Shown here piece after piece: positions 3,380 to 21,992 of a stretch of DNA of 24,000 nt. The translations under genes and the position numbers were made by a program. The stretch covers positions 20,939-44,938 of the forward strand of contig CAWBEF010000012.1 of assembly GCA_963787765.1 (NCBI GenBank). The letters run 5' to 3'. The notes under the pieces were generated by a model that was not told the DNA's origin, did no database searches, and was given only the letters and a program-made list of their open reading frames with translations. This DNA comes from an uncultured Solirubrobacteraceae bacterium. Its GTDB lineage: Bacteria > Actinomycetota > Thermoleophilia > Solirubrobacterales > Solirubrobacteraceae. The first letter of the stretch is position 1, and every line of letters starts with the position of its first letter.

Positions 3380-3793
3380 CTACTGCATCGCCTGCTCGCG
3401 CAGCCGCTCGTTGGCCTCGCGCAGCTCGGGCGTCAGCTCCTCGCCGAAGTCCTCGGGCGCGAAGACCTGGCGCAGCTCGATCTCGACGCCGCCGTCGAAC
3501 GGCGCACGCTTGAGCCACTCGATCGCCTCCTCACGCGATGCGCACTCCCAGATCCAGTACCCCGCGATGAGCTCCTTGGACTCGGTGAAGGGGCCGTCGA
3601 TGACGGTGCGCTCACTGCCGTTGAAGCGGACCCTGGCGCCCTTGGCGGTCGGGTGCAGGCCCTCGCCGGCAAGCATCACGCCGGACTTGACGAGTTCCTC
3701 GTTGTACTTCGTCATCGCCGTGAGAAGCTCCGTGCTGGGCATCTGACCCGCCTCGGAATCGGGCGACCCGGGGACCAGGACCATGAAGCGCAT
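3380..3793 (-). CDS. YciI/DGPF-domain family protein
   Basis: The start is taken at ATG 3793 (MRFMVLVPG...), preceded by AAAGGAGAG. The sequence is typical of YCII-related proteins (GVMLAGEGLHP...VIDGPFTESKELIAGYWIWECASREEAIEW). The 42 codons upstream in the ORF-track entry overlap the promoter region and look non-coding. Confidence 0.88.
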   Translation of the reverse strand: MRFMVLVPGSPDSEAGQMPSTELLTAMTKYNEELVKSGVMLAGEGLHPTAKGARVRFNGSERTVIDGPFTESKELIAGYWIWECASREEAIEWLKRAPFDGGVEIELRQVFAPEDFGEELTPELREANERLREQAMQ

Positions 3794-3829
3794 TGTTCTC
3801 TCCTTTTGTTGGGTTGTATCTACCCGTAC

Positions 3830-3856
3830 GTCGAACGAGCTCGGCTGAAATCGACA
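3830..3856 (-). promoter_or_regulatory. Candidate ECF42-dependent promoter of the yciI-like/sigma operon (TGTCGA-N17-CGAC)
   Basis: The minus strand reads TGTCGA (3856-3851), a 17-nt spacer TTTCAGCCGAGCTCGTT, then CGAC (3833-3830). This lies 36 nt upstream of ATG 3793. It matches the ECF42 target signature as I recall it (-35 TGTCGA, -10 CGA/TC). Confidence 0.5.
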
Positions 3857-3912
3857 CGCCCGGGACCGGCTCTCCGACGTTACTCGGCGAGACGTCTCGC
3901 CCGCCGAGGCTA

Positions 3913-3941
3913 TTGACATTAGCCTAGAGGCTAGCTATATT
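3913..3941 (+). promoter_or_regulatory. Near-consensus sigma-70-type promoter (TTGACA-17-TATATT) with an operator-like palindrome in the spacer
   Basis: TTGACA lies at 3913-3918 and TATATT at 3936-3941, exactly 17 nt apart. The spacer holds the inverted repeat TAGCCT-AG-AGGCTA (3920-3933). This is an AT-rich island in otherwise GC-rich DNA, upstream of the hydrolase-TetR operon. Confidence 0.6.
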
Positions 3942-3993
3942 ATTCTTCATGCCACGGACCCGAAGCACACACACGACCCCGGAGGACCGAAAC

Positions 3994-4842
3994 ATGACCA
4001 CAGCGACCGAGCTCACGCACTCTGAGCAGGCTGTCCAGAACACGACCTACCTGAGCCGCCCGGGCGGGCGCGTCGCCTACGACATCGCCGGGGAGGGCCC
4101 CCTGGTGGTGCTGGTTCCCGGAATGGGCGACCTGCGCGACGGATACCGGTTCCTCGCCCCTGCGCTGGCCGAGGCCGGCTACCGGGTCGCCACGACCGAC
4201 CTGCGCGGCCACGGCGACAGCGACGCGTCATTCGCCTCCTACGGCGACGCCGAGACCGCGGGTGACATCCTCGCCCTGATCGAGGAGCTGGGCGGCCCCG
4301 CCGTGGTCATCGGCAACTCGATGGCGGCGGCGGCAGCAGTGCTCGCCGCGGCCGAGCGCCCCGATTCGCTCGCCGGCCTCGTCCTCGTCGGACCGTTCGT
4401 GCGCAACGGCAAGGTGAGCCTCGCCCAGCGTGTCGGCTTGCGACTCGCGATGGCACCGCTGTGGGCCGCGAGCGCATGGCGCTCATACCTGCCGAAGCTC
4501 TACGCCGGGCAGCGCCCGGCCGACTTCGAGGAGTACCGCGACCGGCTCGTGGCGAGCCTGCGCCGGCCGGGGTATGCGAAGGCGTTCTCGCTCACGACGC
4601 GCGCCGACCACGCCCCCGCCGAGGCGCGCCTCGCCGATGTCTCGGCGCCAACCCTGGTTGTGATGGGCGATCAGGACCCCGACTTCCCCGACCCCCGGGC
4701 GGAGGCCGATTGGATCGCACAGGTGCTCGACGGCGAGGTCGTGATGGTGCCCGACGCGGGGCACTATCCGCAGTCCCAGCGGCCCGAGATCACCGCCGAG
4801 GCGATCGGCCGATTCCTTGGCGAGGTGAGCGGACGTGGCTAG
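3994..4842 (+). CDS. Alpha/beta-fold hydrolase
   Basis: ATG 3994 is preceded by GGAGGA at 7-nt spacing. An alternative leaderless-type ATG at 3949 sits 7 nt after the -10 box. Motifs are LVVLVPGMGD (oxyanion region), the nucleophile elbow GNSMA and a C-terminal DAGHYPQ (catalytic His). Confidence 0.85.
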   Translation: MTTATELTHSEQAVQNTTYLSRPGGRVAYDIAGEGPLVVLVPGMGDLRDGYRFLAPALAEAGYRVATTDLRGHGDSDASFASYGDAETAGDILALIEELGGPAVVIGNSMAAAAAVLAAAERPDSLAGLVLVGPFVRNGKVSLAQRVGLRLAMAPLWAASAWRSYLPKLYAGQRPADFEEYRDRLVASLRRPGYAKAFSLTTRADHAPAEARLADVSAPTLVVMGDQDPDFPDPRAEADWIAQVLDGEVVMVPDAGHYPQSQRPEITAEAIGRFLGEVSGRG

Positions 4843-5428
4843 AGCCGGCCTGAGCGAGCTCGCCGTCATCGAAGAGGCCGAGCGCCTGATCGACGAGGTC
4901 GGCCTGGCGCGGCTGACGCTGGCCGAGCTCGCCGCGCGCCTGGGTGTCCGCCAGCCCTCGCTCTACAAGCACATCCGGGGTACCGGCGGGCTCGTGCGCA
5001 GCATCTCGGTCCGCGCCAAGCACGAGCTGGCGTACGTCCTCGCCCGGGCCGCCGTCGGGCGCGAGCGAGCCGATGCGGTCGCCGCGATCGCGGACGCCTA
5101 CCGGGACTGGGCAATCGAGCATCCAGGCCGCTACGCGACCACCCAGACCGCGCCCGCGGCCGGCGACGAGGAGGACGAGGCCGCGAGCCTGGCGGTGCTG
5201 GAGGTCGTCACCGACGTCCTTGCCGGCTACGGGCTGAGCGATGAGGACGCGATCGATGCGACGCGCACCCTGCGCTCGGCGCTGCACGGCTTCATCACGC
5301 TTGAGAGCGGCGGCGGCTTCGGGCTCCCGATGGACATCGACCGCAGCTTCCAGCGGCTCGTCGGGGCAATTGCGACGGCGTTCTCCTCATGGACCGAGCA
5401 GCCGGCGATGAGCCGCGCAGGGAGCTGA
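4835..5428 (+). CDS. TetR/AcrR family transcriptional regulator (WHG-type C-terminal domain)
   Basis: The GTG start overlaps the hydrolase stop by 8 nt. The HTH is LTLAELAARLGVRQPSLYKHI. The C-terminal LRSALHGFITLE motif is typical of the TetR_C WHG subgroup. Confidence 0.88.
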   Translation: MARAGLSELAVIEEAERLIDEVGLARLTLAELAARLGVRQPSLYKHIRGTGGLVRSISVRAKHELAYVLARAAVGRERADAVAAIADAYRDWAIEHPGRYATTQTAPAAGDEEDEAASLAVLEVVTDVLAGYGLSDEDAIDATRTLRSALHGFITLESGGGFGLPMDIDRSFQRLVGAIATAFSSWTEQPAMSRAGS

Positions 5429-5539
5429 ACCGCGCCGTGAGCATCCGGTCGCGGCAACCGAGCCCCGCTACGCTCGCCTGGGGCTCCATCCAGTAGCCGG
5501 CCGCGCAGGCCCGAGCAAACCACAACCCGGGAGCAACTC

Positions 5540-6130
5540 ATGACGAGCGAGACTGTCGAGCCGATCGACCCGTCCAGGACCGCGCTGTTGATCATGGACT
5601 ACCAGAACGGCATTCTGCCGATGGCAGCGAATCCCGATGAGCTGCTGAGAGGTGCCCGGCAGGCGATCGATCTGATGCGCTCGCACGGCGCCACGATCGG
5701 CTACGTCCGCGTCGGCTTCGCCGATGCGAGCGAGATCGGCGGCTCGATGGGAAAGCGGGTCGGCGGCCCCGCAGCGGCGCTCGAGCATTTCAACGCCGAG
5801 CACGCCAACACCCAGATCCACCCCGACGTCGCGCCCGAGCAGGGAGACATCGTCGTGCGCAAGACCCGGGTCGGTCCCTTCGGCAGCACCGACCTCGATC
5901 AGCAGTTGAGGGCACGGGGGATCGACACACTCGTTCTCGCAGGCGTCTCCACCTCGGGCGTCGTCCTGTCGACCGTCCGCGACGCCCACGACCGCGACTA
6001 CCGCCTGATCGTCCTGGCCGACCTCTGCGCCGACCGCGACGCCGAGGTCCACGAGGTCCTCACCGGCAAGGTCTTCCCGGGGCAGGCCGAGGTGATCAAC
6101 GCCGCCGAGCTGCACGGCCTGCTGCACTAG
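5540..6130 (+). CDS. Isochorismatase/cysteine-hydrolase family protein (nucleophile Cys apparently absent)
   Basis: TALLIMDYQNGIL (catalytic Asp region), VVRKTR (Lys) and LVLAGVSTSGVVLSTVRDA. In this last motif the usual T-x-x-C-V cysteine position reads Val. GGGAGC lies upstream of the ATG. Confidence 0.82.
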   Translation: MTSETVEPIDPSRTALLIMDYQNGILPMAANPDELLRGARQAIDLMRSHGATIGYVRVGFADASEIGGSMGKRVGGPAAALEHFNAEHANTQIHPDVAPEQGDIVVRKTRVGPFGSTDLDQQLRARGIDTLVLAGVSTSGVVLSTVRDAHDRDYRLIVLADLCADRDAEVHEVLTGKVFPGQAEVINAAELHGLLH

Positions 6131-6546: not shown

Positions 6547-8019
6547 TCAGGTCTCGGGGACACCCTTGGCAACGCCGGCGGCCTTCCAGGACGGCTTGCG
6601 GAACCGGTGCAACAGCAGCGGCGGGAGCACGCCCAGGGCGAGGATCCCCGCGGCGATCAGGGCGCCATAGCCGAGCGGGCTCGTGTGGGCCAGCTGCGAC
6701 GGGGACACGAACCCGATCAGGAACGCGATCACCGATGCCAGCCCGCCCACGACGCACAGCAGGCTGAGCGCGGGGGCGCGGTAACCGCGCGGGTGATCGG
6801 GCTGCGCGCGGCGCAGGCGCACCGCGGCGATGAACATCAGGACGTACATGATCAGATAGACCTGGGTGGCCATCGCGGTGAACATCCAGTAGGCGCTCGA
6901 GACCGTCGGGATCAACGCGTAGAGCGCCGCGATGACGGTGATCACGACGGCCTGCGCGGTCAGGATGTGGATCTCGATCCCTTGCTCGTTGACCGCTTGG
7001 AAGTAGGGCGGCAGGTAGCCCTGTTCTCGCCCGATTCGCACCAGCCCCTCCGACGGGCCGTCAAGCCAGGCCATCATGCCCGCCAGCGCGCCGGCCGCCA
7101 GCGCAACACCGATCACCGGCGTGGCGAACCCGATCCCGAAATGCGTCGTGAGGCTGTTGAAGGCCTGCATGACCCCGGCGGTGAAGCTGATGTGGCCCGC
7201 CGGGACGACCCAGGCGATCGCCAGGGTGGGGAAGATGAAGACCGCCAGCACGAGCGCCATGGCGAGGAAGATCGACTTCGGATACTCCCGGCCGGGGTTG
7301 CGCAGCTCATCCACATGAACGGCGTTGATCTCGACCCCGGCATAGGTGAAGAAGCTGTTGACGATCAGGACGATGCTCGCCAGGCCGCTCCATGGCGGCA
7401 GGATGTGACGGGTGTCGATCGGCGCCGCGGAATGGTTGCCCTGGATCAGATAGATGACGCCGAGCACGACGAGGATGGCCCCCGGGATCAGCGTCCCGAT
7501 CACGGTCCCGCTCGAGGACAGCTCGGCCACCAGCGAGACGCCCCGCGAGGACACGAGCACGCCGCCCCAGAACAGCACGATGATGATCGCGGCCGTGTAG
7601 ATCCCGTTGCCGGCCAGCCGCCGGTCGACCACATAGGCGAGCGTGCTTGCCACGTAGGCGAGCAGCGCCGGGTAGTAGAAGACGGTCTGGGCGAACTGGC
7701 ACCAGACCGCCAGTAGGCCCATCGGGGCCGAGATCCCCTCGCGGACCCAGTTGTATACGCCGCCCGGCCAGCCCGAGGCCAGTTCCGCCGCGACCAGCGA
7801 GACGGGCAGCAGGAACACGAACGCCGGCAGGACATAGAGGAAGACCGAGGCCAGCCCCAGCACCGAGGTCGCGGGCGCCGATCCCAGGTAGCCGACCGAC
7901 CCGACGGTCATCATCGCCAGCGCGGGCCAGGTGATGCGCTTCCGGGGCCGCGGCCCGGCGGCTGCCCTGCTCGCCGAGGGGCCGAGGGCTCGTGGATGGC
8001 GTCGCCTCAGCACCCACAT
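6547..8019 (-). CDS. APC-superfamily amino-acid permease (GadC/YjeM-like)
   Basis: 490 aa with about 12 predicted TM helices. The characteristic N-terminal region is LVAAELASGWPGGVYNWVREGISAPMGLLAVW. Confidence 0.88.
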   Translation of the reverse strand: MWVLRRRHPRALGPSASRAAAGPRPRKRITWPALAMMTVGSVGYLGSAPATSVLGLASVFLYVLPAFVFLLPVSLVAAELASGWPGGVYNWVREGISAPMGLLAVWCQFAQTVFYYPALLAYVASTLAYVVDRRLAGNGIYTAAIIIVLFWGGVLVSSRGVSLVAELSSSGTVIGTLIPGAILVVLGVIYLIQGNHSAAPIDTRHILPPWSGLASIVLIVNSFFTYAGVEINAVHVDELRNPGREYPKSIFLAMALVLAVFIFPTLAIAWVVPAGHISFTAGVMQAFNSLTTHFGIGFATPVIGVALAAGALAGMMAWLDGPSEGLVRIGREQGYLPPYFQAVNEQGIEIHILTAQAVVITVIAALYALIPTVSSAYWMFTAMATQVYLIMYVLMFIAAVRLRRAQPDHPRGYRAPALSLLCVVGGLASVIAFLIGFVSPSQLAHTSPLGYGALIAAGILALGVLPPLLLHRFRKPSWKAAGVAKGVPET

Positions 8020-8264: not shown

Positions 8265-9275
8265 TCATGCCCGGCCGGCCATTGTCAGCTCGCCGGCGCT
8301 CTCGCCGCGCAGCAGCCGGTAGCCGAGCAGGCCACCGAGGCTGGGGATCCAGAAGGCGACGGCGTGGTAGATCAGGACCCCGGCCGTTGTCTCGAGAGCC
8401 GGGGCGCCGTAGAGGATCAGGACCGCCGCAAGGCCGCCCTCGAGCACGCCGATCGAGCCCGGGACAGGGATCAGGTTGCCCAGGTAGCCGATGATGTAGC
8501 CGAGGATCAGCACCGAGATCGGGGGGCTGAAGTGGACAGCGTGGAGCGCCGCTCCGAGGACGGCAATGTCGAAGCCGAGGTAGCCGATCGCACCGAACAG
8601 GCGCCAGCTCGGGTGACGCAGTGCGCCCAGGGCCTCGCTGACGCCGTCGGCGAGTGCACGCACGGGTGCGCTGGAGGCCAGGCGCCCGCGGGAACGGTGG
8701 GCAAGGCCTGACAGCGCCGCCGCCCCCACGATCACGAGGACACCGCCGCCCGCCGGCAGGGCCCAGGCCAGCGTGCCGCCCGGGCCCGCGGAGACGCCGA
8801 TACCGAGCAGGACCCCCGCGAGGCTCATCGCGCTGACGCTGACGGCGCTCGAGAGGAAGAACAGCCCCCCCGAGCGGCGCACGATCTGCTCGGTCGGGAT
8901 GCCTTCCAGGTGCATCAGCCAGCCGCCGAGCGCGAGCGCGCCTGCGCCGCCGGTCGGCAAGAGAGCCCCGGAGCCCATCTCGGTCCAGGCCAGCTCCCTC
9001 GCCCGTCGCGCGCTCAGCCCATCGAAGAAGTGGCGGAACAGGACGACGAAGCTCGCGCACGAGGCGAGCTCCAGTGCGATGGCGAGCGCCAGCCAGCCGT
9101 CCGAGGCTCCCCGCAGGTCCACGAGCACCTGCCGCAGGCCCGGGACGGCGATCAGGATCGCCACGAGCGCCGCCACGAGGACGGCGCCCGTCCCCAGGCG
9201 ACGCAGGAGCGGGTGGGAGCTCGCGCCTGCCTGGAGGGGCTCAACCCGCCCGGCGCCGGCGGCGACGGCGCTCAT
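8265..9275 (-). CDS. UPF0104 / lysylphosphatidylglycerol-synthase-TM-like (flippase-like) membrane protein
   Basis: Polytopic membrane protein ending with the family-typical NLIPVPGSIGVLEGGLAAVLILYG...VLIYHAVAFWIPSLGG. Its start overlaps the upstream gene stop (ATGA at 9272-9275). Confidence 0.8.
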   Translation of the reverse strand: MSAVAAGAGRVEPLQAGASSHPLLRRLGTGAVLVAALVAILIAVPGLRQVLVDLRGASDGWLALAIALELASCASFVVLFRHFFDGLSARRARELAWTEMGSGALLPTGGAGALALGGWLMHLEGIPTEQIVRRSGGLFFLSSAVSVSAMSLAGVLLGIGVSAGPGGTLAWALPAGGGVLVIVGAAALSGLAHRSRGRLASSAPVRALADGVSEALGALRHPSWRLFGAIGYLGFDIAVLGAALHAVHFSPPISVLILGYIIGYLGNLIPVPGSIGVLEGGLAAVLILYGAPALETTAGVLIYHAVAFWIPSLGGLLGYRLLRGESAGELTMAGRA

Positions 9276-9802
9276 CGCTGTGCCGCCGCGAGGATCCTCG
9301 CGTCAAGCCGGCCATGGCCGATGTGCAGGACGGTCGTCTCGAGGGCGCCGGCGAGGAAGCGCATCCCTGCCCGGTCCAGCTCGGCACGGGCCTCGGCCCG
9401 GATGATGCCGTCATCCTGGCCCGGCTCCGCGGGGAGCAGCACTCCGTGGAAGGAGACTTCCAGGAGCTCGTCTCCCGTGGCCAGCGATCCGGGAATCGTC
9501 AGCCGGCCCTGGCCGTCGGCCAGGATCCGCCGCGAGCGAAACACGAGCCCCGGCCCGGCGGGGTCCTCCTCGCGTGCAGCCGCGGAGATCAGAAAGGCAC
9601 CGGTGCCGTCGTTCACGATGCGTCCGCGCAGGGGCATCTGCTGGAGCGGTTCGAGGTGGGCCAGGCGCCGCACGGCCAGCTCTGCGGTTGAGCCCTCGAG
9701 CAGCGTCCACGAGCCCGGCGCCGTGAGGGCCGGTGCTGCGCTGATCCGCCGGTGTGCTCCGCTCCACCGGCGAGTCTGGTGACTGTGGAGGTCGATCGCC
9801 AT
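9272..9802 (-). CDS. Hypothetical protein, translationally coupled to the flippase-like gene
   Basis: The long ORF has high GC3. The start is taken at ATG 9802 (MAIDLHS...). I recognise no family from the sequence. Confidence 0.6.
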   Translation of the reverse strand: MAIDLHSHQTRRWSGAHRRISAAPALTAPGSWTLLEGSTAELAVRRLAHLEPLQQMPLRGRIVNDGTGAFLISAAAREEDPAGPGLVFRSRRILADGQGRLTIPGSLATGDELLEVSFHGVLLPAEPGQDDGIIRAEARAELDRAGMRFLAGALETTVLHIGHGRLDARILAAAQR

Positions 9803-9824
9803 AGAACGCACCCTAGCGCAATCA

Positions 9825-9838
9825 TTGGTAGTTACCAA
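9825..9838. promoter_or_regulatory. Operator-like palindrome TTGGTA-GT-TACCAA in the MarR divergent intergenic region
   Basis: Perfect 6-bp arms with a 2-bp spacer, in a locally AT-richer region between the 9802 (minus) and 9886 (plus) starts. A weaker inverted repeat, GATAT-N5-ATATC, lies at 9862-9876. Confidence 0.5.
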
Positions 9839-9885: not shown

Positions 9886-10515
9886 GTGACGGCCATCTCC
9901 GATCTCGGCTTGAATGCTGGAGAACAAGAACTCCTCCGGCGGGTGGGCATCCCCTTGCAGATCGTGCGCCTCCTGTCCAGATGCCGCGCAGAGGGCTATG
10001 CTTGGTATATGCCAATGGAAGCCGTGATAGCCAAGGAGCCTGCCAAGCAGGAAGTCATCGGACGCCACATCGGCTTCCTGGTGGCTCAGGTGGGCCGGGC
10101 GGCAACGCGTCGCTACGGGGCTGCCCTCGCTCCCGTCGGCGTCAACCCGCGCCAGACAGCGATCCTCTTCGAGTTGCGTCGCGACGGGGCGATGAGCCAA
10201 CAGGCGCTGAGCGAGGTGCTGGACATCGACCCGAGCAACCTCGTGGGCCTCTTGAACTTCCTCGAGGAGGAGGGGTACCTGCTGCGCCGCCGCGACCCCG
10301 CCGACCGGCGCCGCCACGTCGTCGAAATATCTCAGCGCGGGGTCCGGGTGCTCGGCGAAATCGAGCGGGCGGCCGAGGAGGTCGAGGACGAGTTCTTCGG
10401 CGCCCTGAGCCTCGAGGAGCGAGACCAGCTGCGTGAGCTGTTGCGTCGTGTCGCCAAGACGGACATCGTCTCGCTCGCACGGGGCGAGGACGGAGCCGCT
10501 CCCCAGGGCTGCTGA
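9886..10515 (+). CDS. MarR family transcriptional regulator
   Basis: The winged-HTH core is NPRQTAILFELRRDGAMSQQALSEVLDIDPSNLVGLLNFLEEEGYLLRRRDPADRRRHVVEISQRG. The start is uncertain. GTG 9886 has no SD and the first ~40 codons have lower GC3; ATG 10009 or 10015 are alternatives. Confidence 0.85.
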   Translation: MTAISDLGLNAGEQELLRRVGIPLQIVRLLSRCRAEGYAWYMPMEAVIAKEPAKQEVIGRHIGFLVAQVGRAATRRYGAALAPVGVNPRQTAILFELRRDGAMSQQALSEVLDIDPSNLVGLLNFLEEEGYLLRRRDPADRRRHVVEISQRGVRVLGEIERAAEEVEDEFFGALSLEERDQLRELLRRVAKTDIVSLARGEDGAAPQGC

Positions 10516-10536
10516 GCCCGGCGGAGCTCCAGGACC

Positions 10537-11325
10537 TCAGCTGCCGGCGAGCGCGCCTGCGTACACCTGCCATGCCAGGGCGCTCTTCGCGACCAGGCTG
10601 AGGATCAGGTAGACACGCTCGGCAAAGGCCGGGTCTGCCCAGCGGCCGCGGCCGCGGTAGTGCAGCCACATGTTGACGGCGAAGGTGTTGAACAACAGGA
10701 ACAGCGATACGAAGATCGCGAACACGAAGCCCGGCGCGCCACTGCTGTTCGCCTGCGAGACGCCAAGCTGCAGGCCGATCGCGACCCAGGGGACGGCGCC
10801 CGCGACGCAGCCGTAGATGAACGGCCGCCAGTCGACGGGCTCCCCGGCGCGGTTCGCTCGCTCCATCGCAAGCCCGAACAGGATCATCGCCGTGTTCACG
10901 CCGAACAGCCCCACGAGCGCGACCGCATCGGTCACGCCGGCGAGCATTGCGATGAGGACGACCATGATCGACGCGCTGAGTGAGTACTCCCACCAGCGCG
11001 CGGGGTTGACCCCCCGTGCGACGTTCGCCAGATACCAGGGTCGTATCCGCGGGGTGACGACGCTCAGATGGTCGGCCGCGGCCAGCAGCAGGAACGCGGC
11101 GACCGCGAGGTCGATCCGGAGGTTCAGCAGCCCGACCGGCCCTCCGAAACGATCTGCCCCGGGCGGGCCGGTCAGGTAGCGCACGTTCACCGGCAGCGAG
11201 GCGGCCCTGGCCAGGCCCAGGATCAGTAGCGCCTGTGCCAGGTGCGCGAGTCCCACGATGATGTTCATGCGCACCAGCCGCCCGGCCGCGGGCCCGGCTG
11301 GCTGGGACGGTGCGGGCGCGCTCAT
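10537..11325 (-). CDS. Heliorhodopsin (7-TM retinal-binding protein, HeR family)
   Basis: Similarity runs the full length against the prototype HeR 48C12, recalled from memory. Shared blocks are YLTGPPG, RWWEYSLSASIMVVLIA (Glu113), FGVNTAMILFG, PGFVFAIFVSLFLLFNTFAV and LILSLVAKSALAWQVYAG (Lys247, AAG at 10585-10587). His28 and His86 are conserved. The start is taken at ATG 11325, which gives an N-terminal length matching 48C12. Confidence 0.92.
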   Translation of the reverse strand: MSAPAPSQPAGPAAGRLVRMNIIVGLAHLAQALLILGLARAASLPVNVRYLTGPPGADRFGGPVGLLNLRIDLAVAAFLLLAAADHLSVVTPRIRPWYLANVARGVNPARWWEYSLSASIMVVLIAMLAGVTDAVALVGLFGVNTAMILFGLAMERANRAGEPVDWRPFIYGCVAGAVPWVAIGLQLGVSQANSSGAPGFVFAIFVSLFLLFNTFAVNMWLHYRGRGRWADPAFAERVYLILSLVAKSALAWQVYAGALAGS

Positions 11326-11456
11326 CGATCGAGCATAGTCACGTGTCGGGCGCTCAGGTTCAGCAGTGGTGGCCCGCGATGAGCGCCGCCCCCGCGCAGC
11401 CTGGGATCTGGTTGTAGGGTCGACATACGGCAACCTGAGCTCCAGCGGAGGCACCC

Positions 11457-12968
11457 GTGAGCACCGAGACGGCGCTGCGAACAATCGAACATGACATCGG
11501 CGGCGTCCGCACCGCCGGCGAGTCGACGCGGAGCTCGGTCGTCTGGGACCCCGCCACCGGCGAGCCCCAGGCGCGGGTGCTGCTGGCGGAGGCCCCCGAC
11601 GTCGATCGCGCGGTCAAGGCGGCTCGCGGGGCGCTAGCGGAGTGGGCGAACGCGTCCCTGGCCAGGCGCAGCAGGATCATGTTCCGCTTTCGCGAGCTGC
11701 TCGAGGGAAGCGTCGAGGAGCTCGCGCGGCTGATCGCCGCCGAGCACGGCAAGGTCGTCGAGGACGCCAAGGGGGAGATCGGACGGGGCATTGAGGTCGT
11801 CGAGTTCGTCTGCGGCCTGGCGCAGCTGCTGAAGGGCGAGTACTCCGACGAGGTCTCGACGGGCATCGACGCGCACTCGTTCCGCCAGCCGCTCGGGGTC
11901 TGCGCCGGCATCACGCCGTTCAACTTCCCCGCGATGGTCCCGATGTGGATGCATCCCGTAGCCATCGCGACGGGCAACACGTTCGTCCTGAAGCCATCCG
12001 AGCGCGACCCCTCGGCTTCGAACCTCATCGCCGAGCTCTACCGCGAGGCGGGCCTCCCCGACGGTGTCTTCAACGTCGTCCACGGCGACAGGCTCGCCGT
12101 CGATGCGATCCTCGACCATCCCGGGATCGCGGCGGTCTCCTTCGTCGGCTCGACTCCGATCGCCCGCTACGTCCACGAACGTGCCACGCAGCAGGGCAAG
12201 CGCGTCCAGGCGCTCGGCGGGGCCAAGAACCACGCCGTCGTGATGCCCGACGCGGACCTCGACCATGCAGCCGACCAGCTCACAGCCGCGGGCTTCGGCT
12301 CGGCCGGCCAGCGGTGCATGGCGATCTCGGTCGTGGTCGCGGTGGGGGAGTGCGCCGAGCCGCTGCTTGAGCGCCTCGCCGCCAGGGCGCGAGCGATCAA
12401 GGTCGGTCCCGGCCTCGACCCCGAGTCGGAAATGGGTCCCGTCGTGACACCCGAGGCGCGCGAGCGGATCCTCGGCTACATCGAGCAGGGAGTCAGCGAC
12501 GGCGCCGTCGCGACCGTCGACGGGCGCGAGCTTCAGAACGCGACCGGCGGCTTCTATGTCGGCCCAACGCTCCTCGACCGGGTCACGCAGGAGATGTCCG
12601 TCTACACCGATGAGATCTTTGGCCCGGTGCTGACGGTCATCCGTCTCGACACGCTCGACGCGGCGATCGAGCTGATCAACGCCGGGTCGTTCGCAAACGG
12701 CACTGCGATCTTCACATCGAGCGGCCAGGCCGCCCGCCGCTTCCAGCGCGAGGTGAACGTCGGGATGATCGGCATCAACGTCCCGATCCCCGTGCCGATG
12801 GCCTACTACTCCTTCGGCGGCTGGAAGGACTCCCTGTTCGGCGACCACCACATCCACGGCGCCGAGGGCATCCGCTTCTACACGCGAGCCAAGGCGGTCA
12901 CGACCCGCTGGCCGGCCGACGGCACGGGCGGCGCGAGCCGGGGCCTGAACTTCCCCACCAACTCGTGA
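11457..12968 (+). CDS. mmsA: CoA-acylating methylmalonate-semialdehyde dehydrogenase
   Basis: GTG 11457 lies 5 nt after GGAGG. Aldehyde dehydrogenase superfamily, with MmsA-typical ITPFNFPAMVPMWMHPVAIATGNTFVLKPSERDP, the catalytic Cys region GQRCMA and the C-terminal FYTRAKAVTTRW. Confidence 0.92.
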   Translation: MSTETALRTIEHDIGGVRTAGESTRSSVVWDPATGEPQARVLLAEAPDVDRAVKAARGALAEWANASLARRSRIMFRFRELLEGSVEELARLIAAEHGKVVEDAKGEIGRGIEVVEFVCGLAQLLKGEYSDEVSTGIDAHSFRQPLGVCAGITPFNFPAMVPMWMHPVAIATGNTFVLKPSERDPSASNLIAELYREAGLPDGVFNVVHGDRLAVDAILDHPGIAAVSFVGSTPIARYVHERATQQGKRVQALGGAKNHAVVMPDADLDHAADQLTAAGFGSAGQRCMAISVVVAVGECAEPLLERLAARARAIKVGPGLDPESEMGPVVTPEARERILGYIEQGVSDGAVATVDGRELQNATGGFYVGPTLLDRVTQEMSVYTDEIFGPVLTVIRLDTLDAAIELINAGSFANGTAIFTSSGQAARRFQREVNVGMIGINVPIPVPMAYYSFGGWKDSLFGDHHIHGAEGIRFYTRAKAVTTRWPADGTGGASRGLNFPTNS

Positions 12969-14431
12969 TGTCCTCGCCGGCCGACCACCCGACAACCCGG
13001 ATGCCGGCCTCCTCGGGCCACGCTCCCGGCTCCCCTGTCGCCCATCTGAGCGTCGCCGAGCGGGTCGCCCGCGGCAGGGCGGCGCGCAAGGAGGTTCCGC
13101 GCTCCAGCCACGGCGTGTTCGAGCCGCCGGCCGCGCGTCCAGACCCCGTCACGCTCCTTGAACGACAGGCGAAGACCCGTGTGCCTGAGCTCGTTCCGGT
13201 GCGCAACGGGCGGATGCTCGCCTCGCCGTTCGCCTTCTATCGCGGCGCCGCTTTGATCATGGCCGGCGACCTCGCCCAGACGCCGCGCTCGGGCCTTACG
13301 GTGCAGTGCTGCGGCGATGCGCATCTGTCGAACTTCGGCGTGTTCGCCTCGCCCGAGCGGCGGCTGGTGTTCGACCTCAACGACTTCGACGAGACGCTCG
13401 CCGGGCCGTGGGAGTGGGACGTCAAGCGGCTGGCCGTGAGCATGCTGATCGCCGCGCGGGAGAACGGCTACAAGGCGAAGGACCAGGAGCAGATCGTGAC
13501 CGGGACGGTCGAGGGCTACCGCACGGCGATGGCGGGCTTTGCGGGGATGAAGGACCTCGACGTCTGGTACGCCCACCTGGAAATCGAGGATCTCCTCGGG
13601 GAGATGGGCGGCGAACTGAAGCGGGGGATGGTCCAGCGGACCGAGAAGACGCTCGCCAAGGCACGCACCAGGGACAGCATGTCGGCGTTTTCGAAACTCA
13701 CCCGCGAGGTCGACGGGGAACGGCGGATCGTCGCCGAACCGCCGCTGATCGTGCCGATCGACGACCTGGCGCAGGGCAGAGAACGCGATGAAATGTTTGA
13801 CGGCCTGCACGAGCTGGTCAACCAGTACCGTGCGACGCTCCCCTACGAGCGTCGCATCCTGCTCGAGCGCTTCCGGCTGACCGATCTCGCCCGCAAGGTC
13901 GTCGGCGTGGGGAGCGTGGGGACGCGGGCCTGGATCGCGCTGATGCTCGGCAGGGACAAGCAGGACCCGCTGTTCCTGCAGCTCAAGGAGGCCGAGGCCT
14001 CGGTGCTGGAGGAGTTCCTGGAGCCCAGCGAGTTCGCCAATCACGGCGAGCGGGTCGTCGTCGGCCAGCGGCTGATGCAGGCCAGCAGCGACATCTTCCT
14101 GGGCTGGCTGCATGTCGAGTCGGGTATGGACGGAGGTGAGCGCGACTTCTACGTGCGCCAGCTGCGCGACTGGAAGGGCTCCGCGGAAATCGACCGCATG
14201 ATTCCCGAGGGCATGACGGTTTACGGCCGGCTTTGCGCCTGGACGCTCGCGCGCGCGCATGCCCGCAGCGGCGACCCTGTTGCGATCGCCGCATACCTCG
14301 GTGGCGGGAGCGTCTTCGACCGCGCGATCCTCGAGTTCGCCGACTCCTACGCGGACCAGAACGAGCATGACTACGCGGCATTCGAGCAGGCCGCCGTGTC
14401 GGGTCGCATCAGCGCCGAGAAGGGCGTCTGA
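12965..14431 (+). CDS. DUF2252 domain-containing protein
   Basis: The start (GTGATG at 12965-12970) overlaps the mmsA stop. The family-typical block is RMLASPFAFYRGAALIMAGDLA...CGDAHLSNFGVFASPERRLVFDLNDFDET. Confidence 0.88.
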   Translation: MMSSPADHPTTRMPASSGHAPGSPVAHLSVAERVARGRAARKEVPRSSHGVFEPPAARPDPVTLLERQAKTRVPELVPVRNGRMLASPFAFYRGAALIMAGDLAQTPRSGLTVQCCGDAHLSNFGVFASPERRLVFDLNDFDETLAGPWEWDVKRLAVSMLIAARENGYKAKDQEQIVTGTVEGYRTAMAGFAGMKDLDVWYAHLEIEDLLGEMGGELKRGMVQRTEKTLAKARTRDSMSAFSKLTREVDGERRIVAEPPLIVPIDDLAQGRERDEMFDGLHELVNQYRATLPYERRILLERFRLTDLARKVVGVGSVGTRAWIALMLGRDKQDPLFLQLKEAEASVLEEFLEPSEFANHGERVVVGQRLMQASSDIFLGWLHVESGMDGGERDFYVRQLRDWKGSAEIDRMIPEGMTVYGRLCAWTLARAHARSGDPVAIAAYLGGGSVFDRAILEFADSYADQNEHDYAAFEQAAVSGRISAEKGV

Positions 14432-14440
14432 GCCCCCGCA

Positions 14441-15133
14441 TCACGACTGGCGGGCGGAGTAGGCCCGGATCGCCTCCAGGCGCCGGTCGGCCGTGACGAG
14501 GCTCTTGACGGTCTCGCCCCGCAGCCCGTCGAGATGGGTTGCCAGCACGATGAACAGCTCGGCGGTCGTAAGCGCGTCGCCGAGTGCGTCGTGGGGCCGG
14601 TGGGAGGGGATGCCGAGCTCGGCGGCCAGCTCGGAGAGCATCATCCGCCTCGGCTGGACACCGTCGCGTTCGTGCAGCCAGATCGCGCCGAGGACGCTGG
14701 TGTCGACCATCGGGCGGCGCAGGCGCAGGCCCTGACCGCGCAGCGCCCGTCCGAGGAAGCGCCGCTCGACCTCGGCGAAGTGGACGATCGGGATCCGCCC
14801 TGCCATGCAGCCCAGCAGCGGGTCGATCGCCACGTCCAGCTCGGGCGCGTGCTCGAGATCGACGTGGCGCAGGCCATGGACCTTGATCGAAGCCTCTCCC
14901 AGCGCGCCGTCGGGACGGACCATCCCTGCGAGGGCCCTGCCGGGCAGCGCCCTGGCGTCCTCGACGGGCACTGCACCGAAGGCGATGATCTCGTCGCGCC
15001 GGGGATCCAGTCCCGTCAGCTCGAGGTCGACGGCGCACCAGCGCGCCTCGCGCCAGGGCATCCGCCCGGAGGGGGGGCGCTCGAGCGCATAGGCGCTCGC
15101 CCCAGGGCGGCGCTCGCCGGCGCTCCGCGTCAT
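14441..15133 (-). CDS. DnaQ-like (DEDDh) 3'-5' exonuclease
   Basis: ExoI is VDLELTGLDP, the ExoII-like motif is VHFAEVERRFL and ExoIII is HDALGDALTTAELF. Its ATG overlaps the stop of the upstream DUF294 gene (ATGA at 15130-15133). Confidence 0.85.
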   Translation of the reverse strand: MTRSAGERRPGASAYALERPPSGRMPWREARWCAVDLELTGLDPRRDEIIAFGAVPVEDARALPGRALAGMVRPDGALGEASIKVHGLRHVDLEHAPELDVAIDPLLGCMAGRIPIVHFAEVERRFLGRALRGQGLRLRRPMVDTSVLGAIWLHERDGVQPRRMMLSELAAELGIPSHRPHDALGDALTTAELFIVLATHLDGLRGETVKSLVTADRRLEAIRAYSARQS

Positions 15134-17025
15134 CGCGGCGGGAGGTCCAGTTCGGCGCCAACGCGCTTCTGAACCGACGCCACCGCCCGGAAGGCCTCCT
15201 TGAGATGGCTGCGGGTCAGGGCGCTCAGCTCCCCGGTGTCGAGGTGGTCGTCGGGCTCGCGGCCCTCGCGCAGCTGCTCGACCTGGTGTGCCATCCGCAG
15301 CTCGCTGAACAGCTCGTGGGCCTCCTCCAGTGTCCGGGCGTCCTCGGCCGGGAGCGTCCCCGCGTCCCTGGCGGCCCGCAGCCGCTCGGTCGTCGAGGCG
15401 CTCGTCACGCCCGCCGCGATCCCGGCCCAGCGTGCGAGGTCGACAACGGGCAGCAGCCCTCCCGTCTTGATGTCCAGCAGCCCGCGATGCTTGCCGTCGT
15501 GCTCGAGCACGAGCCCGCGGAGGAAGCCCGTCGGCGGCCGGTGGGCCAGGGCCAGCCGGGCGAGCAGCCGGACCAGCTGAGGCCGGGCCTGAGCCATGCG
15601 GAAGGTGTCGGCCAGCGGTGTGCCCTGGTGGATCCCCCAGACGGGCCGGCTGTCCACCAGCAGGGAGACGAGCACCAGGGCCTTCTCCTGGGTCGGCCGC
15701 TCGATCCAGCTGCGGGCCAGCCCCTGCCAGGAGTCGATCGAGCGCACGAACACCACATCCGAGGCCGTCGCGCCGTGGCTGTCGATCGGCAGTCCCCAGC
15801 TGCTCAGCTGCGCCGTCGCGGTCTCGGCCAGGCCGTGGAGATAGGGACGGACCTCCTGCTCGGCGCTGTCGCCGTACCAGACGATCGCGCTGTCCAGATC
15901 GGACCCCGGCGTCGCCTCGCGGCGCGCCTGGCTGCCGAGCGCCAGCCAGGTGAACTCGGCCGGCGCCGGCCCGGCCGCCGTGATCGCCAGTTCGATCACG
16001 CGGCGCGTCAGCGCGTCGAGCAGTACCGAGTACATCCGCGCGATGCTGGGCGCACCGACGCGTGCTTCGTGCAGCGCCACGACGGCCGGGCGTAGCCCCC
16101 CCGCTGCCCGGGCGAGCTCCTCCACGCTCGCCGCCCGTGCGATCGAGCCGCGCAGGTTGAACGAGGAGAGCGTCTCGGCGGCATGCAGGTCGACTGCCTC
16201 CACGACACCCACAAGCGTCCGCCCGGCGGTCACGACAGGGAAGTGGCGGATGCCCCGGTCGAGCATCTCGAGCAGCACGTCTCCTCCGAGGGCATCGGGG
16301 TCGACCGTGTAGGCCGGCGCGCTCATCGCCTGCGAGACCGGTGCGTCATAGGGGAGAGCGCCGGCGACGACGCGCGAACGGAGATCGCGGTCGGTCAGGA
16401 TCCCGAAGCTCTCACCCAGGTCGATGACCGCCGCGGTGGCTCCCGCCGCGGTCATCTGAGCGGCCACGTCGCGGATCGCCGCGGAGGGCGGGCACAGGAC
16501 CGGCGCTCCCCGGATCAGGCTTCGCACCGGGCGGTTCGCCGGGTCGGGCGTCGGCGCCCCGGTCGCGAGCGCCGTCGGCGCCCTCGCATGCATCTCAAGG
16601 AGCGAGCGCGCCACGAAGCGGACGCTCTCAGGACGCGCCAGGACGGCGCTCGCGACAGGCTGGGGGATCCGGTAGCAGAGCGTGTCCTCCTCGGCCCGGG
16701 CGGCGAATCCGGGGGGCAGCCCCGAGAGCATCGAGGCATGGCCGAACAGCTCACCGGCGCCCAGCAGGTCGAGCACCCGGCCGGCGAGCAGGATCGCCAC
16801 GGCGCCCGCCCGGATCACACGCAGGTGCTCGATCGGATGGGTCCCCTGGGAGAAGATCGTCGCCCCCGCGGGGAAGAACTCGACCTCGGTCGCCTGCGCC
16901 ACCCGCTCCAGATCGCCCTGGTCGAGCTCGTTGAACGGGGGGTATCCGCGCAGGAAGGCGCCGACCTCCTCGACAGCCGTGTTGACAGGCTGCTCGGCCG
17001 GCGCTGGCGCTGGGCCCGATGTCAC
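15130..17025 (-). CDS. cNMP-binding + tandem CBS + DUF294 nucleotidyltransferase protein
   Basis: The N-terminal cyclic-nucleotide-binding fold is FFPAGATIFSQG...GELFGHASML. Two CBS motifs follow (ILTDRDLRSRVV; HFPVVTAGRTLVGVVEAVDL). The NTase motif is LALGSQARREATPGSDLDSAIVW, followed by a C-terminal DUF294_C-like helical domain. The exact start is uncertain (GTG 17025). Confidence 0.85.
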   Translation of the reverse strand: MTSGPAPAPAEQPVNTAVEEVGAFLRGYPPFNELDQGDLERVAQATEVEFFPAGATIFSQGTHPIEHLRVIRAGAVAILLAGRVLDLLGAGELFGHASMLSGLPPGFAARAEEDTLCYRIPQPVASAVLARPESVRFVARSLLEMHARAPTALATGAPTPDPANRPVRSLIRGAPVLCPPSAAIRDVAAQMTAAGATAAVIDLGESFGILTDRDLRSRVVAGALPYDAPVSQAMSAPAYTVDPDALGGDVLLEMLDRGIRHFPVVTAGRTLVGVVEAVDLHAAETLSSFNLRGSIARAASVEELARAAGGLRPAVVALHEARVGAPSIARMYSVLLDALTRRVIELAITAAGPAPAEFTWLALGSQARREATPGSDLDSAIVWYGDSAEQEVRPYLHGLAETATAQLSSWGLPIDSHGATASDVVFVRSIDSWQGLARSWIERPTQEKALVLVSLLVDSRPVWGIHQGTPLADTFRMAQARPQLVRLLARLALAHRPPTGFLRGLVLEHDGKHRGLLDIKTGGLLPVVDLARWAGIAAGVTSASTTERLRAARDAGTLPAEDARTLEEAHELFSELRMAHQVEQLREGREPDDHLDTGELSALTRSHLKEAFRAVASVQKRVGAELDLPPR

Positions 17026-17125: not shown

Positions 17126-19187
17126 ATGACAGGCAGGGGATCCACGGACGTGCAGGCGCCGCCTCGCGGCTCGCAGAGGCCGACGCTCCGCGCCCCCGGC
17201 GCCCCGTGGGGGCCGCCGCGGGCGGATCAGGGCCACAGCGCGGCGTTTTGGCAGGCGACGCTCGATTCTTTGAGCGCACACGTCGCGGTGCTCGATCAGG
17301 ATGGCCGGATCGTGGCGGTGAATCGTCCCTGGCGGGACTTTGCCCAGAGCCAGGGCGGAAGCGGCGATTACATCGGCGAGAACTACCTCCAGGTCTGCAC
17401 GGCCGCCGGCGACCCCCTGGCGCTCGAGGTTGCACGTGGCCTGCTCGCGATCCTCGCGGGCGTGGAGCGCGAGGGCGTCTGGGAGTACCCCTGCCACGGG
17501 CCGCGGGAGCGGCGCTGGTTCGAGCTGCGCGCGACGCGCCACGCAGGCGCGGGGCCCGTGCGCGTGGTTCTCGCCCACCAGAACATCACCGCCGCACGGG
17601 AGGCCGAAGAAGAGGCGAGGCTCAAGTCGGAGCTGCTCGACGAGGTCGACGCCTCGGTGATGGTCGCGGACCTCGAGCTGCGCGTGCTCTCCTGGAGCAA
17701 GGGCGCCGAGCAGCTCTACGGCTGGACCGAGGAGGAGGCGATCGGGCGGCGCGCCGACGAGCTGCTCAGCGGCGGCGAAGTCGAGCGGAGCGCCCCGATC
17801 ATCGACGAGCTCCTCCAGGCCGGCCGCTGGGAGGGCGAGTTCCTCGCCTGCCGCAAGGACGGGTCCACGTTCTCCGGCTACTTCCGCAACCACGTGATCC
17901 GCGACGAGGCAGGGAATCCCCGGGCACTGGTCGGGGTCTCGGTCGACATCTCACAGATCAAGAGCGCCTCCCATGAAGTGCTCCGCGCGGGCAGCTATCT
18001 CCGAGCCGTCACCGACAGCATCGGTGAGGCGATGTTCACGCTGGACACCGAGGGGCGCGTCCAATACCTCAACCCCGCGGCTGAACGAGCTCTGGGCTGG
18101 ACCACGGCCGAGCTCGAGGGTCGCTCGATGCACACCGCGACGCATTCGCGCCGTGCCGACGGATCCTCGTTCCCCGTCGAGGAGTGCCCGATTCGGCGCA
18201 CCCGCACTGACGGCGAGACCGTCCACGAGACCGACGATGCCTTCATCCACTCCGACGGCACGCAGTTCCCCGTCGAGTACACCGCCACACCATTCTCGAC
18301 CGAGGAAGGGATCGAGGGCTGCGTGGTCGTCTTCGAGGACATCTCCGAGCGCAAGGCCGAGGAAGCAAAGATCGCGGCCGACCTCGAGAAGCTGCAGTGG
18401 GCCCGTGAAATCCAGGACGCCCTGGCGCAGGAGCGCTTCGTGCTCCACGGCCAACCGATCCAGGACATCCGAACGGGCAGGGTCGTCCAGCAGGAGCTGC
18501 TGATCAGAATGCGACCGCGCGAGGGCGAGCAGCTCATCCTCCCCGGCGCATTCCTGCCGGCCGCGGAGGAGCTCGGGCTGATCACCGAAATAGACCGCTG
18601 GGTGATCGACCAGGCGGCGCATATCGCGGCCACGGGAACGCCCGTCGAGCTGAACGTCTCGGCCCGGTCGATCAGTGACCGGCAGCTGATCGAGCACATC
18701 GAGAGCGCCCTGCGGCGCACCGGCGCGAGCCCACAGCTGCTCGTCTTCGAGATCACCGAGACGGCTGTCATGAGCAACATGGCGGCGGCCGAGGTATTCG
18801 TCAGGCGCCTGCGCCGGCTCGGCTGCCGGATCGCCCTGGACGACTTCGGCACCGGCTTCGGGAGCTTCACCTATCTCAAGCAGCTGGAGTTCGACTATCT
18901 GAAGATCGACATCGAGTTCGTGCAGGATCTCGCCGTCAACCCGGCCAGCCGGACGGTGGTGGAAGCGGTCGTTCGGCTCGCCGACGGCTTCTCGCTGAAG
19001 ACGGTCGGCGAGGGCGTGGAGGACGAGCAGACGCTGCGGCTGCTCGGGGCCCTGGGTGTCGACTATGCAGGGCTATCACATCGGTCGTCCCGCGGCGCTC
19101 GGCCCCGTGGCCGGCCCCCAGCATCCCGGGCAGCGGCTCGCCGTGAGGATCCGGCCGCTGCCCGCCGTGGGCGCTATCCGGCGGTGA
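17126..19187 (+). CDS. PAS-PAS-PAS-EAL cyclic-di-GMP phosphodiesterase-type protein (no GGDEF domain); frame disrupted near 19066-19068
   Basis: Three PAS-like modules. The EAL-domain motifs are QELLIRM, ELNVSARS, FEITE, DDFGTG, LKID and EGVEDE. The conserved terminal QGYHIGRP motif appears only after a +1 frame change at ~19067 (..GVDYA | QGYHIGRPAAL..), and that frame stops at 19187. The uncorrected ORF (to 19378) runs into the antisense of the next gene. Confidence 0.8.
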
Positions 19188-19740: not shown

Positions 19741-19756
19741 CGTCCCAAGCATAGTC

Positions 19757-19804
19757 ATGACACCGGGTGTCATCCATGCTAAGTTGATGACATTGAGTGT
19801 CATC
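19757..19804. promoter_or_regulatory. Two related operator-like palindromes between the divergent TetR and SDR genes
   Basis: ATGACAC-CGG-GTGTCAT lies at 19757-19773 and GATGACA-TTGAG-TGTCATC at 19786-19804. Both are built on ATGACA/TGTCAT arms. Confidence 0.6.
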
Positions 19805-19854
19805 GAACACTCGGGCGCCGCAACGGCCCGAGCGCCGTTACCTGGAGGTTTTCC

Positions 19855-20783: not shown

Positions 20784-20821
20784 TCGATCCCGCGCGGCCC
20801 GTCGGACGCTAGGATCGTCAT

Positions 20822-21172: not shown

Positions 21173-21195
21173 CCATCGAGGGAAGGAAGTGGGGC

Positions 21196-21973: not shown

Positions 21974-21992
21974 CGGCGCAGACCGGCTCGCG

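Follow-up and report, generated by a model that had tools for sequence, protein, structure and literature searches.

We analysed a 24,000-nucleotide stretch of DNA (hereafter the window) from an uncultured Solirubrobacteraceae bacterium (contig CAWBEF010000012.1, positions 20,939 to 44,938 of the forward strand) and found that it carries a genuine, full-length heliorhodopsin (HeR) gene. The coding sequence lies on the minus strand at positions 10537-11325, running from ATG 11325 to the TGA stop at 10537, and encodes a protein of 262 amino acids. The protein is a bona fide HeR because it matches two curated hidden Markov models (HMMs) over their full length, is 45% identical to the HeR 48C12, has the fold of the family and carries its diagnostic residues. 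The family comprises light receptors that bind retinal and sit inverted in the membrane, and a typical member would form a pigment absorbing at about 550 nm with a slow photocycle and no ion transport. With moderate confidence, we read the window protein as a light sensor or regulator and not as an ion pump.

The family assignment had been proposed in an earlier reading of the DNA made without database searches (the sequence-only reading), and profile searches bear it out. The Pfam model PF18761 (Heliorhodopsin) was matched over positions 1-242 of 242 with 289.7 bits (E = 2e-86; cut-off 26.7), and the NCBIfam equivalog NF038020 ('heliorhodopsin HeR') over positions 2-244 of 244 with 283.6 bits (cut-off 100), so that both profiles are covered end to end. 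Heliorhodopsin was the sole Pfam family at E <= 1, and the type-1 rhodopsin family (PF01036) was not matched. A phmmer search of PDB sequences returned the entries of 48C12 (6su3, 6uh3 and 9ljj) as the best matches, with E of about 2e-61 and residues 16-259 of the query aligned to residues 11-253 of the chain. Next came TaHeR (6is6; 1.4e-51) and then a 317-residue heliorhodopsin (9vfc; 6e-39), which is the structure of the eukaryotic protein Cv06 (10.1101/2025.11.27.691015). Matches to all solved HeRs were significant. The whole-length match to 48C12 that the sequence-only reading had described is thereby confirmed: the 242 aligned residues are 45% identical, and the alignment needs just three gaps of one residue each. 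Translation of 10537-11325 also reproduced the 262-residue protein described there, including every sequence block quoted; the blocks said to be shared with 48C12 are similar but not identical to their counterparts (YLTGPPG here, YLNGPPG in 48C12). Among 8,000 candidates scored, 2,109 were homologues at E <= 1e-20.

The AlphaFold2 model, computed from an alignment of 40 sequences (mean predicted local distance difference test score 87.6; predicted TM-score 0.85), contains seven long helices and a two-stranded hairpin (residues 43-51 and 60-70) between helices A and B. A long A-B loop is characteristic of 48C12 (PMC7049168), and the modelled hairpin corresponds to it. In a Foldseek search of the PDB, ten heliorhodopsin chains ranked first (E 2.5e-16 to 4.9e-14; TM-score 0.82-0.91), among them the 48C12 structures 6su4, 6su3 and 6uh3 (TM-score 0.87-0.90). 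The type-1 rhodopsins, comprising bacteriorhodopsin, proteorhodopsin, xanthorhodopsin and the sensory rhodopsins, share the seven-transmembrane fold and a Schiff-base lysine in the last helix but were only weakly similar in structure, with E of about 2e-3 to 2e-2, TM-scores of 0.5-0.65 and 11-17% identity. They differ from the window protein further in having the opposite topology to the one predicted here, an Asp rather than a Glu as counterion, and an Asp (bacteriorhodopsin Asp212) where the window protein has Ser243 (PMC7049168). A chance open reading frame (ORF), of which DNA with the window's 70.6% G+C does yield many long examples (we found no other support for this reading), or a divergent type-1 rhodopsin is practically excluded by HMM scores 183-263 bits above the curated cut-offs, by the PDB-sequence matches, by the number of homologues, by TM-scores of 0.87-0.90 to HeRs against about 0.6 to type-1 rhodopsins, and by a third-position G+C content (GC3) of 0.82, comparable to that of the other real genes in the window.

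To place functional residues, the query was mapped onto 48C12 by alignment, with residue roles taken from PMC9726877 and PMC7049168, and conservation was counted over 80 related genomic loci whose HeRs are 52-88% identical to the window protein. The principal positions are as follows.

10585-10587, minus strand: AAG codon of Lys247, the retinal Schiff-base lysine of helix G by alignment with 48C12 K241; invariant in 80 of 80 related loci
10987-10989, minus strand: GAG codon of Glu113, the Schiff-base counterion of helix C by alignment with 48C12 E107; invariant in 80 of 80
11068-11070, minus strand: CAT codon of His86, aligned with 48C12 His80
11068-11082, minus strand: Ala82-Ala-Ala-Asp85-His86 in helix B, with A82, D85 and H86 invariant in 80 of 80
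11242-11244, minus strand: CAC codon of His28, aligned with 48C12 His23

The sequence-only reading had singled out Lys247, Glu113, His28 and His86 as diagnostic, and all four align with their 48C12 counterparts; the codon it gave for Lys247 is exact. Lys247 lies within the conserved LSLVAKSALAWQ block, in a helix predicted to span residues 232-261 of the model. The position of His28 varies among the 80 loci (His in 55, Phe in 18, Ala in four and not aligned in three). Residues unchanged from 48C12 (48C12 number first) are N16/N21, H23/H28, Q26/Q31, H80/H86, Y92/Y98, N101/N107, R104/R110, W105/W111, E107/E113, Y108/Y114, S111/S117, E149/E155, E230/E236, S237/S243, K241/K247 and W246/W252. Ser243 is invariant in the relatives; its 48C12 equivalent, S237, is the serine that takes the place of bacteriorhodopsin Asp212 (PMC7049168). 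The cavity and its hydrogen-bond network retain 10 of 11 48C12 residues (N16, H23, H80, Y92, N101, R104, Y108, S111, E149 and E230), the exception being Ser76, which is Ala82 here.

Five of the mapped positions differ from 48C12: S76 is A82, F79 is D85, S112 is A118, I170 is A177 and Q213 is M219. The alanine at the Ser76 position was overlooked in the sequence-only reading. Ser76 of 48C12 is listed as conserved across HeRs, donates a hydrogen bond to the counterion and is one of three serines said to stabilise it (PMC7049168); in 48C12 the S76A mutation leaves pigment formation intact and shifts the absorption by 6 nm to the red (PMC9726877). Methionine at the Gln213 position is a frequent HeR variant (PMC7049168). 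At the positions of Ala82 and Asp85 (codons for Ala82 to Asp85 at 11071-11082, minus strand), 48C12 has Ser and Phe and TaHeR has Ser and Ala. Since Ala82 and Asp85 are invariant in all the related loci, the alignment marks the pair as a clade signature rather than a peculiarity of the window gene, and the departures at Ala82, Asp85 and Met219 are clade-wide.

The lateral fenestration, or 'carotenoid site', is also intact in the window protein. Its motif, in 48C12 numbering, calls for an aromatic side chain at both 162 and 206, a small one at both 166 and 210, Gly169 and Asn207, and is present in 91.3% of heliorhodopsins (10.1101/2025.11.27.691015). The window protein has the complete set, F169, C173, G176, F212, N213 and A216, corresponding to F162, C166, G169, F206, N207 and A210 of 48C12.

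The observed distribution of positive charges was counted with the helix boundaries of the model. Thirteen arginines (R16, R19, R93, R95, R104, R110, R156, R159, R167, R224, R226, R228 and R237) fall on the side that would be cytoplasmic if the N-terminus is inside, and four (R40, R49, R59 and R70) fall in the predicted external A-B loop. The count favours the inverted topology, with the N-terminus in the cytoplasm and the C-terminus outside, as the predicted arrangement. The pattern is less clear-cut than in 48C12, for which every positive charge is reported to lie on the cytoplasmic side (PMC7049168) and none on the external side, unlike the window protein with its four arginines in the A-B loop.

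Two solved HeRs can be set beside the window protein as follows. 48C12, from a freshwater actinobacterial metagenome clone (6su3, 6su4, 6uh3 and 9ljj), is of the same length class and shares the seven transmembrane helices with an A-B hairpin, the K241/E107/H23/H80 set and the fenestration residues; the host of the window gene belongs to a high-GC Thermoleophilia lineage, unlike the source of 48C12. TaHeR, from Thermoplasmatales archaeon SG8-52-1 (6is6, 7u55 and 7clj), is about 40% identical in the structural alignment, with TM-scores of 0.82-0.88, and has the same Lys, Glu and His-His set. It differs in being archaeal, in a shorter, gapped A-B loop region and in the residues at the Ala82 and Asp85 positions.

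The boundaries of the gene had been called in different ways, and the correct gene model, as judged from the sequence comparisons, is the 262-residue one, neither the 315-residue maximal ORF nor the 243-residue call made by the Joint Genome Institute (JGI). Two features define the 5' end.

11323-11325, minus strand: heliorhodopsin start codon ATG (Met1), placed by the RLVR position, the homologue starts and the upstream DNA alignment
11332-11337, minus strand: TATGCT, a -10-like box (TANNNT) that precedes the start codon by 6 nt and is conserved in the five closest genomic relatives (L001-L005)

Homologues of 259-269 amino acids begin at the site equivalent to ATG 11325. The longest ORF starts at TTG 11484, and this start was rejected: its 53 added codons are unconserved and overlap the methylmalonate-semialdehyde dehydrogenase (MMSDH) gene that starts at 11457, in keeping with the claim of the sequence-only reading that the 315-residue ORF over-extends by 53 codons. 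The JGI call P0001 (positions 1400-2131 of contig L081 from JGI metagenome 3300014167) is a 243-residue protein, 100% identical to the window protein, that starts at Met20 (ATG 11268). This start was rejected as well. The motif RLVR (R16-L-V-R19), which is kept in the aligned homologues, lies directly upstream of Met20, and most homologues have Leu at the Met20 position; judged by the alignment, the JGI call is truncated, with the conserved RLVR cut off. ATG 11325 is taken as the right start because RLVR precedes Met20, the TTG extension is unconserved and the upstream DNA supports the ATG. The neighbouring MarR-family gene was also called shorter by JGI, at 166 amino acids against 209 for the longest ORF in the window.

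When the upstream DNA of the window was aligned with that of L001-L005, little similarity was found apart from the conserved C-TATGCT-C. The start codon follows the box by exactly six bases in every case, as ATG in the window and GTG in L001-L005. Actinobacterial promoters have -10 elements of the TANNNT type, and leaderless mRNAs that start at AUG or GUG are frequent in these bacteria. The conserved spacing suggests that TATGCT is the -10 element of a leaderless heliorhodopsin mRNA beginning at ATG 11325, and the mRNA is probably monocistronic, transcribed from its own TATGCT promoter. Over positions 10300-11700, a scan with the sigma-70 consensus found no promoter, and a terminator scan recognised none between the heliorhodopsin and MarR stop codons; its single terminator-like match lies inside the coding sequence and is probably due to chance. 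Over-extended ORF calls in the relatives share a spurious 'YAP.VSSPA' peptide because the TATGCT box is conserved upstream of the start.

The closest genomes are metagenome-assembled genomes of uncultured Solirubrobacteraceae and Solirubrobacterales (Thermoleophilia, Actinomycetota), whose HeRs are 81-88% identical to the window protein. Contigs of JGI metagenomes also encode the identical protein; one of them, L081, has the order MMSDH, HeR, MarR, a 176-residue protein and LPG_synthase, as in the window, and is presumably from the same organism. Synteny was assessed by tblastn of all 21 window proteins against the 80 related loci. No window neighbour recurred beside HeR except DUF2252, in two loci; MarR adjoined HeR in none of the 80, and neither the cNMP-CBS-DUF294 gene nor the PAS-EAL gene recurred. 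Unbiased clustering of 982 neighbouring ORFs from the same loci gave fasciclin as the largest neighbour family, in 13 of 80 loci, with none more frequent. The other recurrent families were a pyridoxal phosphate (PLP)-dependent enzyme (Pfam PALP; TrpB-like by eye), zinc alcohol dehydrogenase, acyltransferase, DUF2254, short-chain dehydrogenase/reductase (SDR) and a photolyase-related protein. In eight of the 80 loci (L028, L038, L040, L045, L048, L050, L053 and L060), the next gene downstream of HeR on the same strand is the photolyase-related one (Pfam DPRP), often followed by the SDR and PALP genes. These photolyase-related and SDR clusters are limited to HeRs of roughly 60-70% identity, and the DPRP gene is absent from the window; both SDR and photolyase have been described before as classes of HeR neighbour (PMC11109279).

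Five further contigs of relatives (75-82% identity) had heterogeneous neighbours, including major facilitator superfamily transporters, an acyltransferase, CrcB and NucS, and only one of them, L087, repeats the DUF2252-HeR pair; it is of the same lineage as L009. In L009 (8503-9951) and the equivalent contig L087 (4536-5957), DUF2252 is immediately upstream of HeR on the same strand with a 43 nt gap, and in L004 (11309-12637) it is downstream on the opposite strand. DUF2252 is thus found within about 1.6 kb of HeR in three arrangements, a sample too small to separate linkage from chance. A search of PDB sequences with DUF2252 gave no match at E <= 1. As no flanking gene recurs consistently across the 80 related loci, the context points to no partner, and we conclude that in this clade HeR stands alone, among flanks with a rapid turnover.

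Three characterised HeRs modulate a partner protein through light-dependent binding: AbHeR acts on glutamine synthetase (PMC9529153), TfHeR on a photolyase (PMC9769723) and OcHeR on the ABC transporter OmrDE (PMC11109279). They belong to the same family as the window protein and are compared with it here by description only; among bacterial HeRs, this mechanism is the sole physiological one with experimental support. Each has its partner in the same operon, whereas the window gene lies between the convergent MarR gene and the divergent MMSDH-DUF2252 pair; some relatives of the window protein at about 60% identity do have the photolyase-related gene immediately downstream. None of the ten recurrent HeR neighbour classes of PMC11109279 adjoins the window heliorhodopsin, and genes for glutamine synthetase, photolyase, ABC transporter, SDR, MerR, TerC, NAD+ synthetase, DUF2177 and DUF2238 are absent from the window.

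The sequence-only reading had reported that no retinal-synthesis gene, transducer or kinase stands nearby, and annotation with Pfam and NCBIfam agrees. Within the reach of these two collections, which left a few ORFs unannotated, none of the following was detected in the 24 kb window: phytoene synthase, phytoene desaturase, lycopene cyclase, a Blh/Brp-type oxygenase, a transducer and a histidine kinase. A Pfam scan of the remaining unannotated ORFs gave no crt or blh gene. No transducer (Htr/MCP), histidine kinase or response regulator adjoins the heliorhodopsin gene; the nearest signalling genes are the cNMP-CBS-DUF294 gene at 3.8 kb and the PAS-EAL gene at 5.8 kb. That reading had also treated the missing retinal pathway and partner as peculiar to this organism, which did not stand, since both are the published norm. 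A complete de novo retinal pathway was found in only one of 381 HeR-only genomes; a beta-carotene oxygenase is present in 55% and a retinol dehydrogenase in 63% of such genomes, and HeRs capture exogenous retinal efficiently (Bulzu et al., 10.1101/2021.02.01.429150). There is no conserved transducer near genes of the 48C12 subfamily (Kovalev et al., PMC7049168). Thermoleophilia had already been listed as HeR carriers, in cluster C5 (Bulzu et al., 10.1101/2021.02.01.429150). A stand-alone HeR with neither retinal genes nor a partner nearby is the usual situation for heliorhodopsins.

For the light-sensing or regulatory role that we favour, pigment formation, photochemistry and mode of regulation would follow those of characterised relatives. 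The regulatory mode is modelled on the three partner-binding HeRs, and the photolyase-related gene next to HeR in eight related loci also speaks for it. All-trans-retinal would most likely form a protonated Schiff base with Lys247, Glu113 serving as the counterion, and green light would isomerise the retinal. The Schiff-base proton would then pass into an internal cavity formed by Glu113, His86, His28 and water without being released. In characterised HeRs, the proton does move into an internal cavity unreleased, and a long-lived late intermediate is formed (PMC9726877 and PMC7049168). Such a long-lived state would alter the protein surface and thereby modulate another protein. As the gene stands alone, the partner and the retinal source may be encoded elsewhere, or retinal may be taken up from outside.

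Several observations weigh against this picture. All three characterised regulatory HeRs had operon partners and the window gene has none, which makes the extension of those cases to a stand-alone gene weak. With no operon partner at the locus and no window neighbour conserved in the 80 related loci or the five further contigs, the regulatory model has no identified target in this organism; a retinal-synthesis gene is likewise lacking from the 24 kb. Proton-acceptor chemistry may also differ from that of 48C12, because the counterion-stabilising Ser76 is replaced by Ala and an Asp adjoins His86. The four arginines of the external A-B loop break the strict all-positive-inside pattern of 48C12 (PMC7049168). 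The leaderless start, finally, is put forward as probable on the basis of sequence conservation.

Among the alternatives, a two-antenna light harvester, in which an exogenous xanthophyll in the lateral fenestration passes energy to retinal in the service of phototrophy rather than signalling, appears unlikely. The complete fenestration motif (F169, F212, C173, A216, G176 and N213) would suit it, and the host is monoderm, as the published model requires (10.1101/2025.11.27.691015). The motif is, however, uninformative for this gene because it occurs in 91.3% of HeRs; for bacterial HeRs, carotenoid binding has been put forward from docking and structural analogy rather than measured; members of the 48C12-type subfamily are not known to have an energy-conserving output such as ion transport; and an antenna would also be compatible with a sensory role.

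Somewhat more doubtful is the notion that the Ala82/Asp85/Met219 signature changes the proton-acceptor chemistry or the function of the clade, or that DUF2252, which recurs near HeR in three arrangements, is an undescribed partner. [quoted passage not shown] If Asp85 faces the Schiff-base cavity, it might act as a new terminal group for accepting or releasing the proton; the photocycle of the clade would then differ, perhaps even to the point of transport. A separate alternative, in which the protein transports protons like the viral V2HeR3 and the clade-specific Asp85 beside His86 supplies an extra carboxylate in the proton path, seems improbable. V2HeR3 shows that the HeR fold can move protons (PMC9448325), and the invariance of Asp85 together with the change from Ser76 to Ala alters the polar inventory near the Schiff-base cavity. 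Yet the window protein is far closer to 48C12 (45%) and TaHeR (about 40%), transport has so far been reported for viral HeRs only (PMC9448325), and the fenestration motif is kept here but lacking in subfamily 2, which is predominantly viral and includes the ion transporters (10.1101/2025.11.27.691015).

We consider it very improbable that the gene is intact but its product non-photoactive in a host without retinal, either as a relic or as an opsin with a light-independent role. The lack of blh and crt genes in the window fits such a view, as does the incomplete retinal pathway of most HeR-only genomes (10.1101/2021.02.01.429150). Purifying selection is nevertheless evident across the 80 loci of 52-88% identity, in which neither Lys247 nor Glu113 nor any other residue of the retinal-pocket and cavity set varies (apart from His28, as given above); the oxygenase and retinol dehydrogenase frequencies and the efficient capture of exogenous retinal (10.1101/2021.02.01.429150) also speak against a host devoid of retinal, and a 24 kb window cannot represent a whole genome.

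The heliorhodopsin family was described in 2018; several of its structures have been solved, and NCBI keeps an equivalog model of its own for the family, by which members are named automatically. The window gene is one more member of a family of thousands, and any standard annotation pipeline would name it. The present analysis corrects the gene model, proposes a probable leaderless promoter, brings evidence against a partner encoded in an operon and defines the clade-wide Ala82/Asp85/Met219 signature. Even orthologues of 81-88% identity sit in unrelated neighbourhoods, which argues against operon-encoded partners in this clade. The Ser76Ala/Phe79Asp signature beside the proton-accepting His offers a cheap mutagenesis target for studies of HeR proton transfer.

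The remaining genes of the window, assigned by Pfam and NCBIfam unless stated otherwise, are listed below.

2-472, plus strand: NAD-binding oxidoreductase fragment
2113-3375, minus strand: extracytoplasmic function (ECF) sigma factor with DUF6596
3380-3919, minus strand: YCII protein
3949-4842, plus strand: alpha/beta hydrolase
4835-5428, plus strand: TetR regulator
5441-6130, plus strand: isochorismatase
6547-8019, minus strand: GadC-like antiporter
8265-9275, minus strand: LPG_synthase_TM protein
9272-9838, minus strand: ORF for a 188-residue protein without a Pfam or NCBIfam match
9886-10515, plus strand: MarR-family regulator (Pfam MarR, 1.5e-12), convergent with the heliorhodopsin gene
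11457-12968, plus strand: CoA-acylating MMSDH (TIGR01722, 677.5 bits; cut-off 448.5)
12965-14431, plus strand: DUF2252 protein (PF10009, 9e-147)
14441-15133, minus strand: RNase T-like (DEDD) exonuclease
15130-17025, minus strand: cNMP-CBS-DUF294 nucleotidyltransferase protein
17126-19378, plus strand: PAS-EAL phosphodiesterase (PAS-PAS-PAS-EAL)
19384-19803, minus strand: TetR regulator, unusually short (139 amino acids)
21993-22955, minus strand: DsbA/thioredoxin-like protein
about 23094 to the window end, plus strand: Pfam domain of an NhaA Na+/H+ antiporter

The stop codons of the MarR and heliorhodopsin genes are separated by 21 bp. On the other side, MMSDH and DUF2252 form a two-gene unit (11457-14431, plus strand) divergent from the heliorhodopsin gene, the DUF2252 start overlapping the MMSDH stop by 4 nt. 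MMSDH was considered as a retinal-related aldehyde dehydrogenase and rejected on its score against the MMSDH subfamily model. The sole alpha/beta hydrolase of the window lies about 5.7 kb from the heliorhodopsin gene. No Pfam or NCBIfam match was obtained for ORFs or stretches at 469-1986 (minus strand), 9272-9838 (minus strand), 19800-20753 (minus strand) and 20753-21993; the GC3 filter, moreover, passes the real genes but not the 505-residue ORF at 469-1986.

A second-messenger cluster lies 3.8-8 kb from the heliorhodopsin gene, in which the cNMP-CBS-DUF294 gene overlaps the exonuclease gene by 4 nt and the PAS-EAL gene is divergent alongside; the PAS-EAL protein has no Pfam match to GGDEF. 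The amino-acid permease at 6547-8019 scored 627.5 bits on the equivalog model of the Glu/GABA antiporter GadC, just below the 640-bit cut-off, and no glutamate decarboxylase gene is visible beside it. The NhaA frame is open from 22494 on the plus strand and is overlapped by the DsbA-like gene; because its Pfam domain begins only at residue 201 of the open frame, the real NhaA start is probably near 23060-23100.

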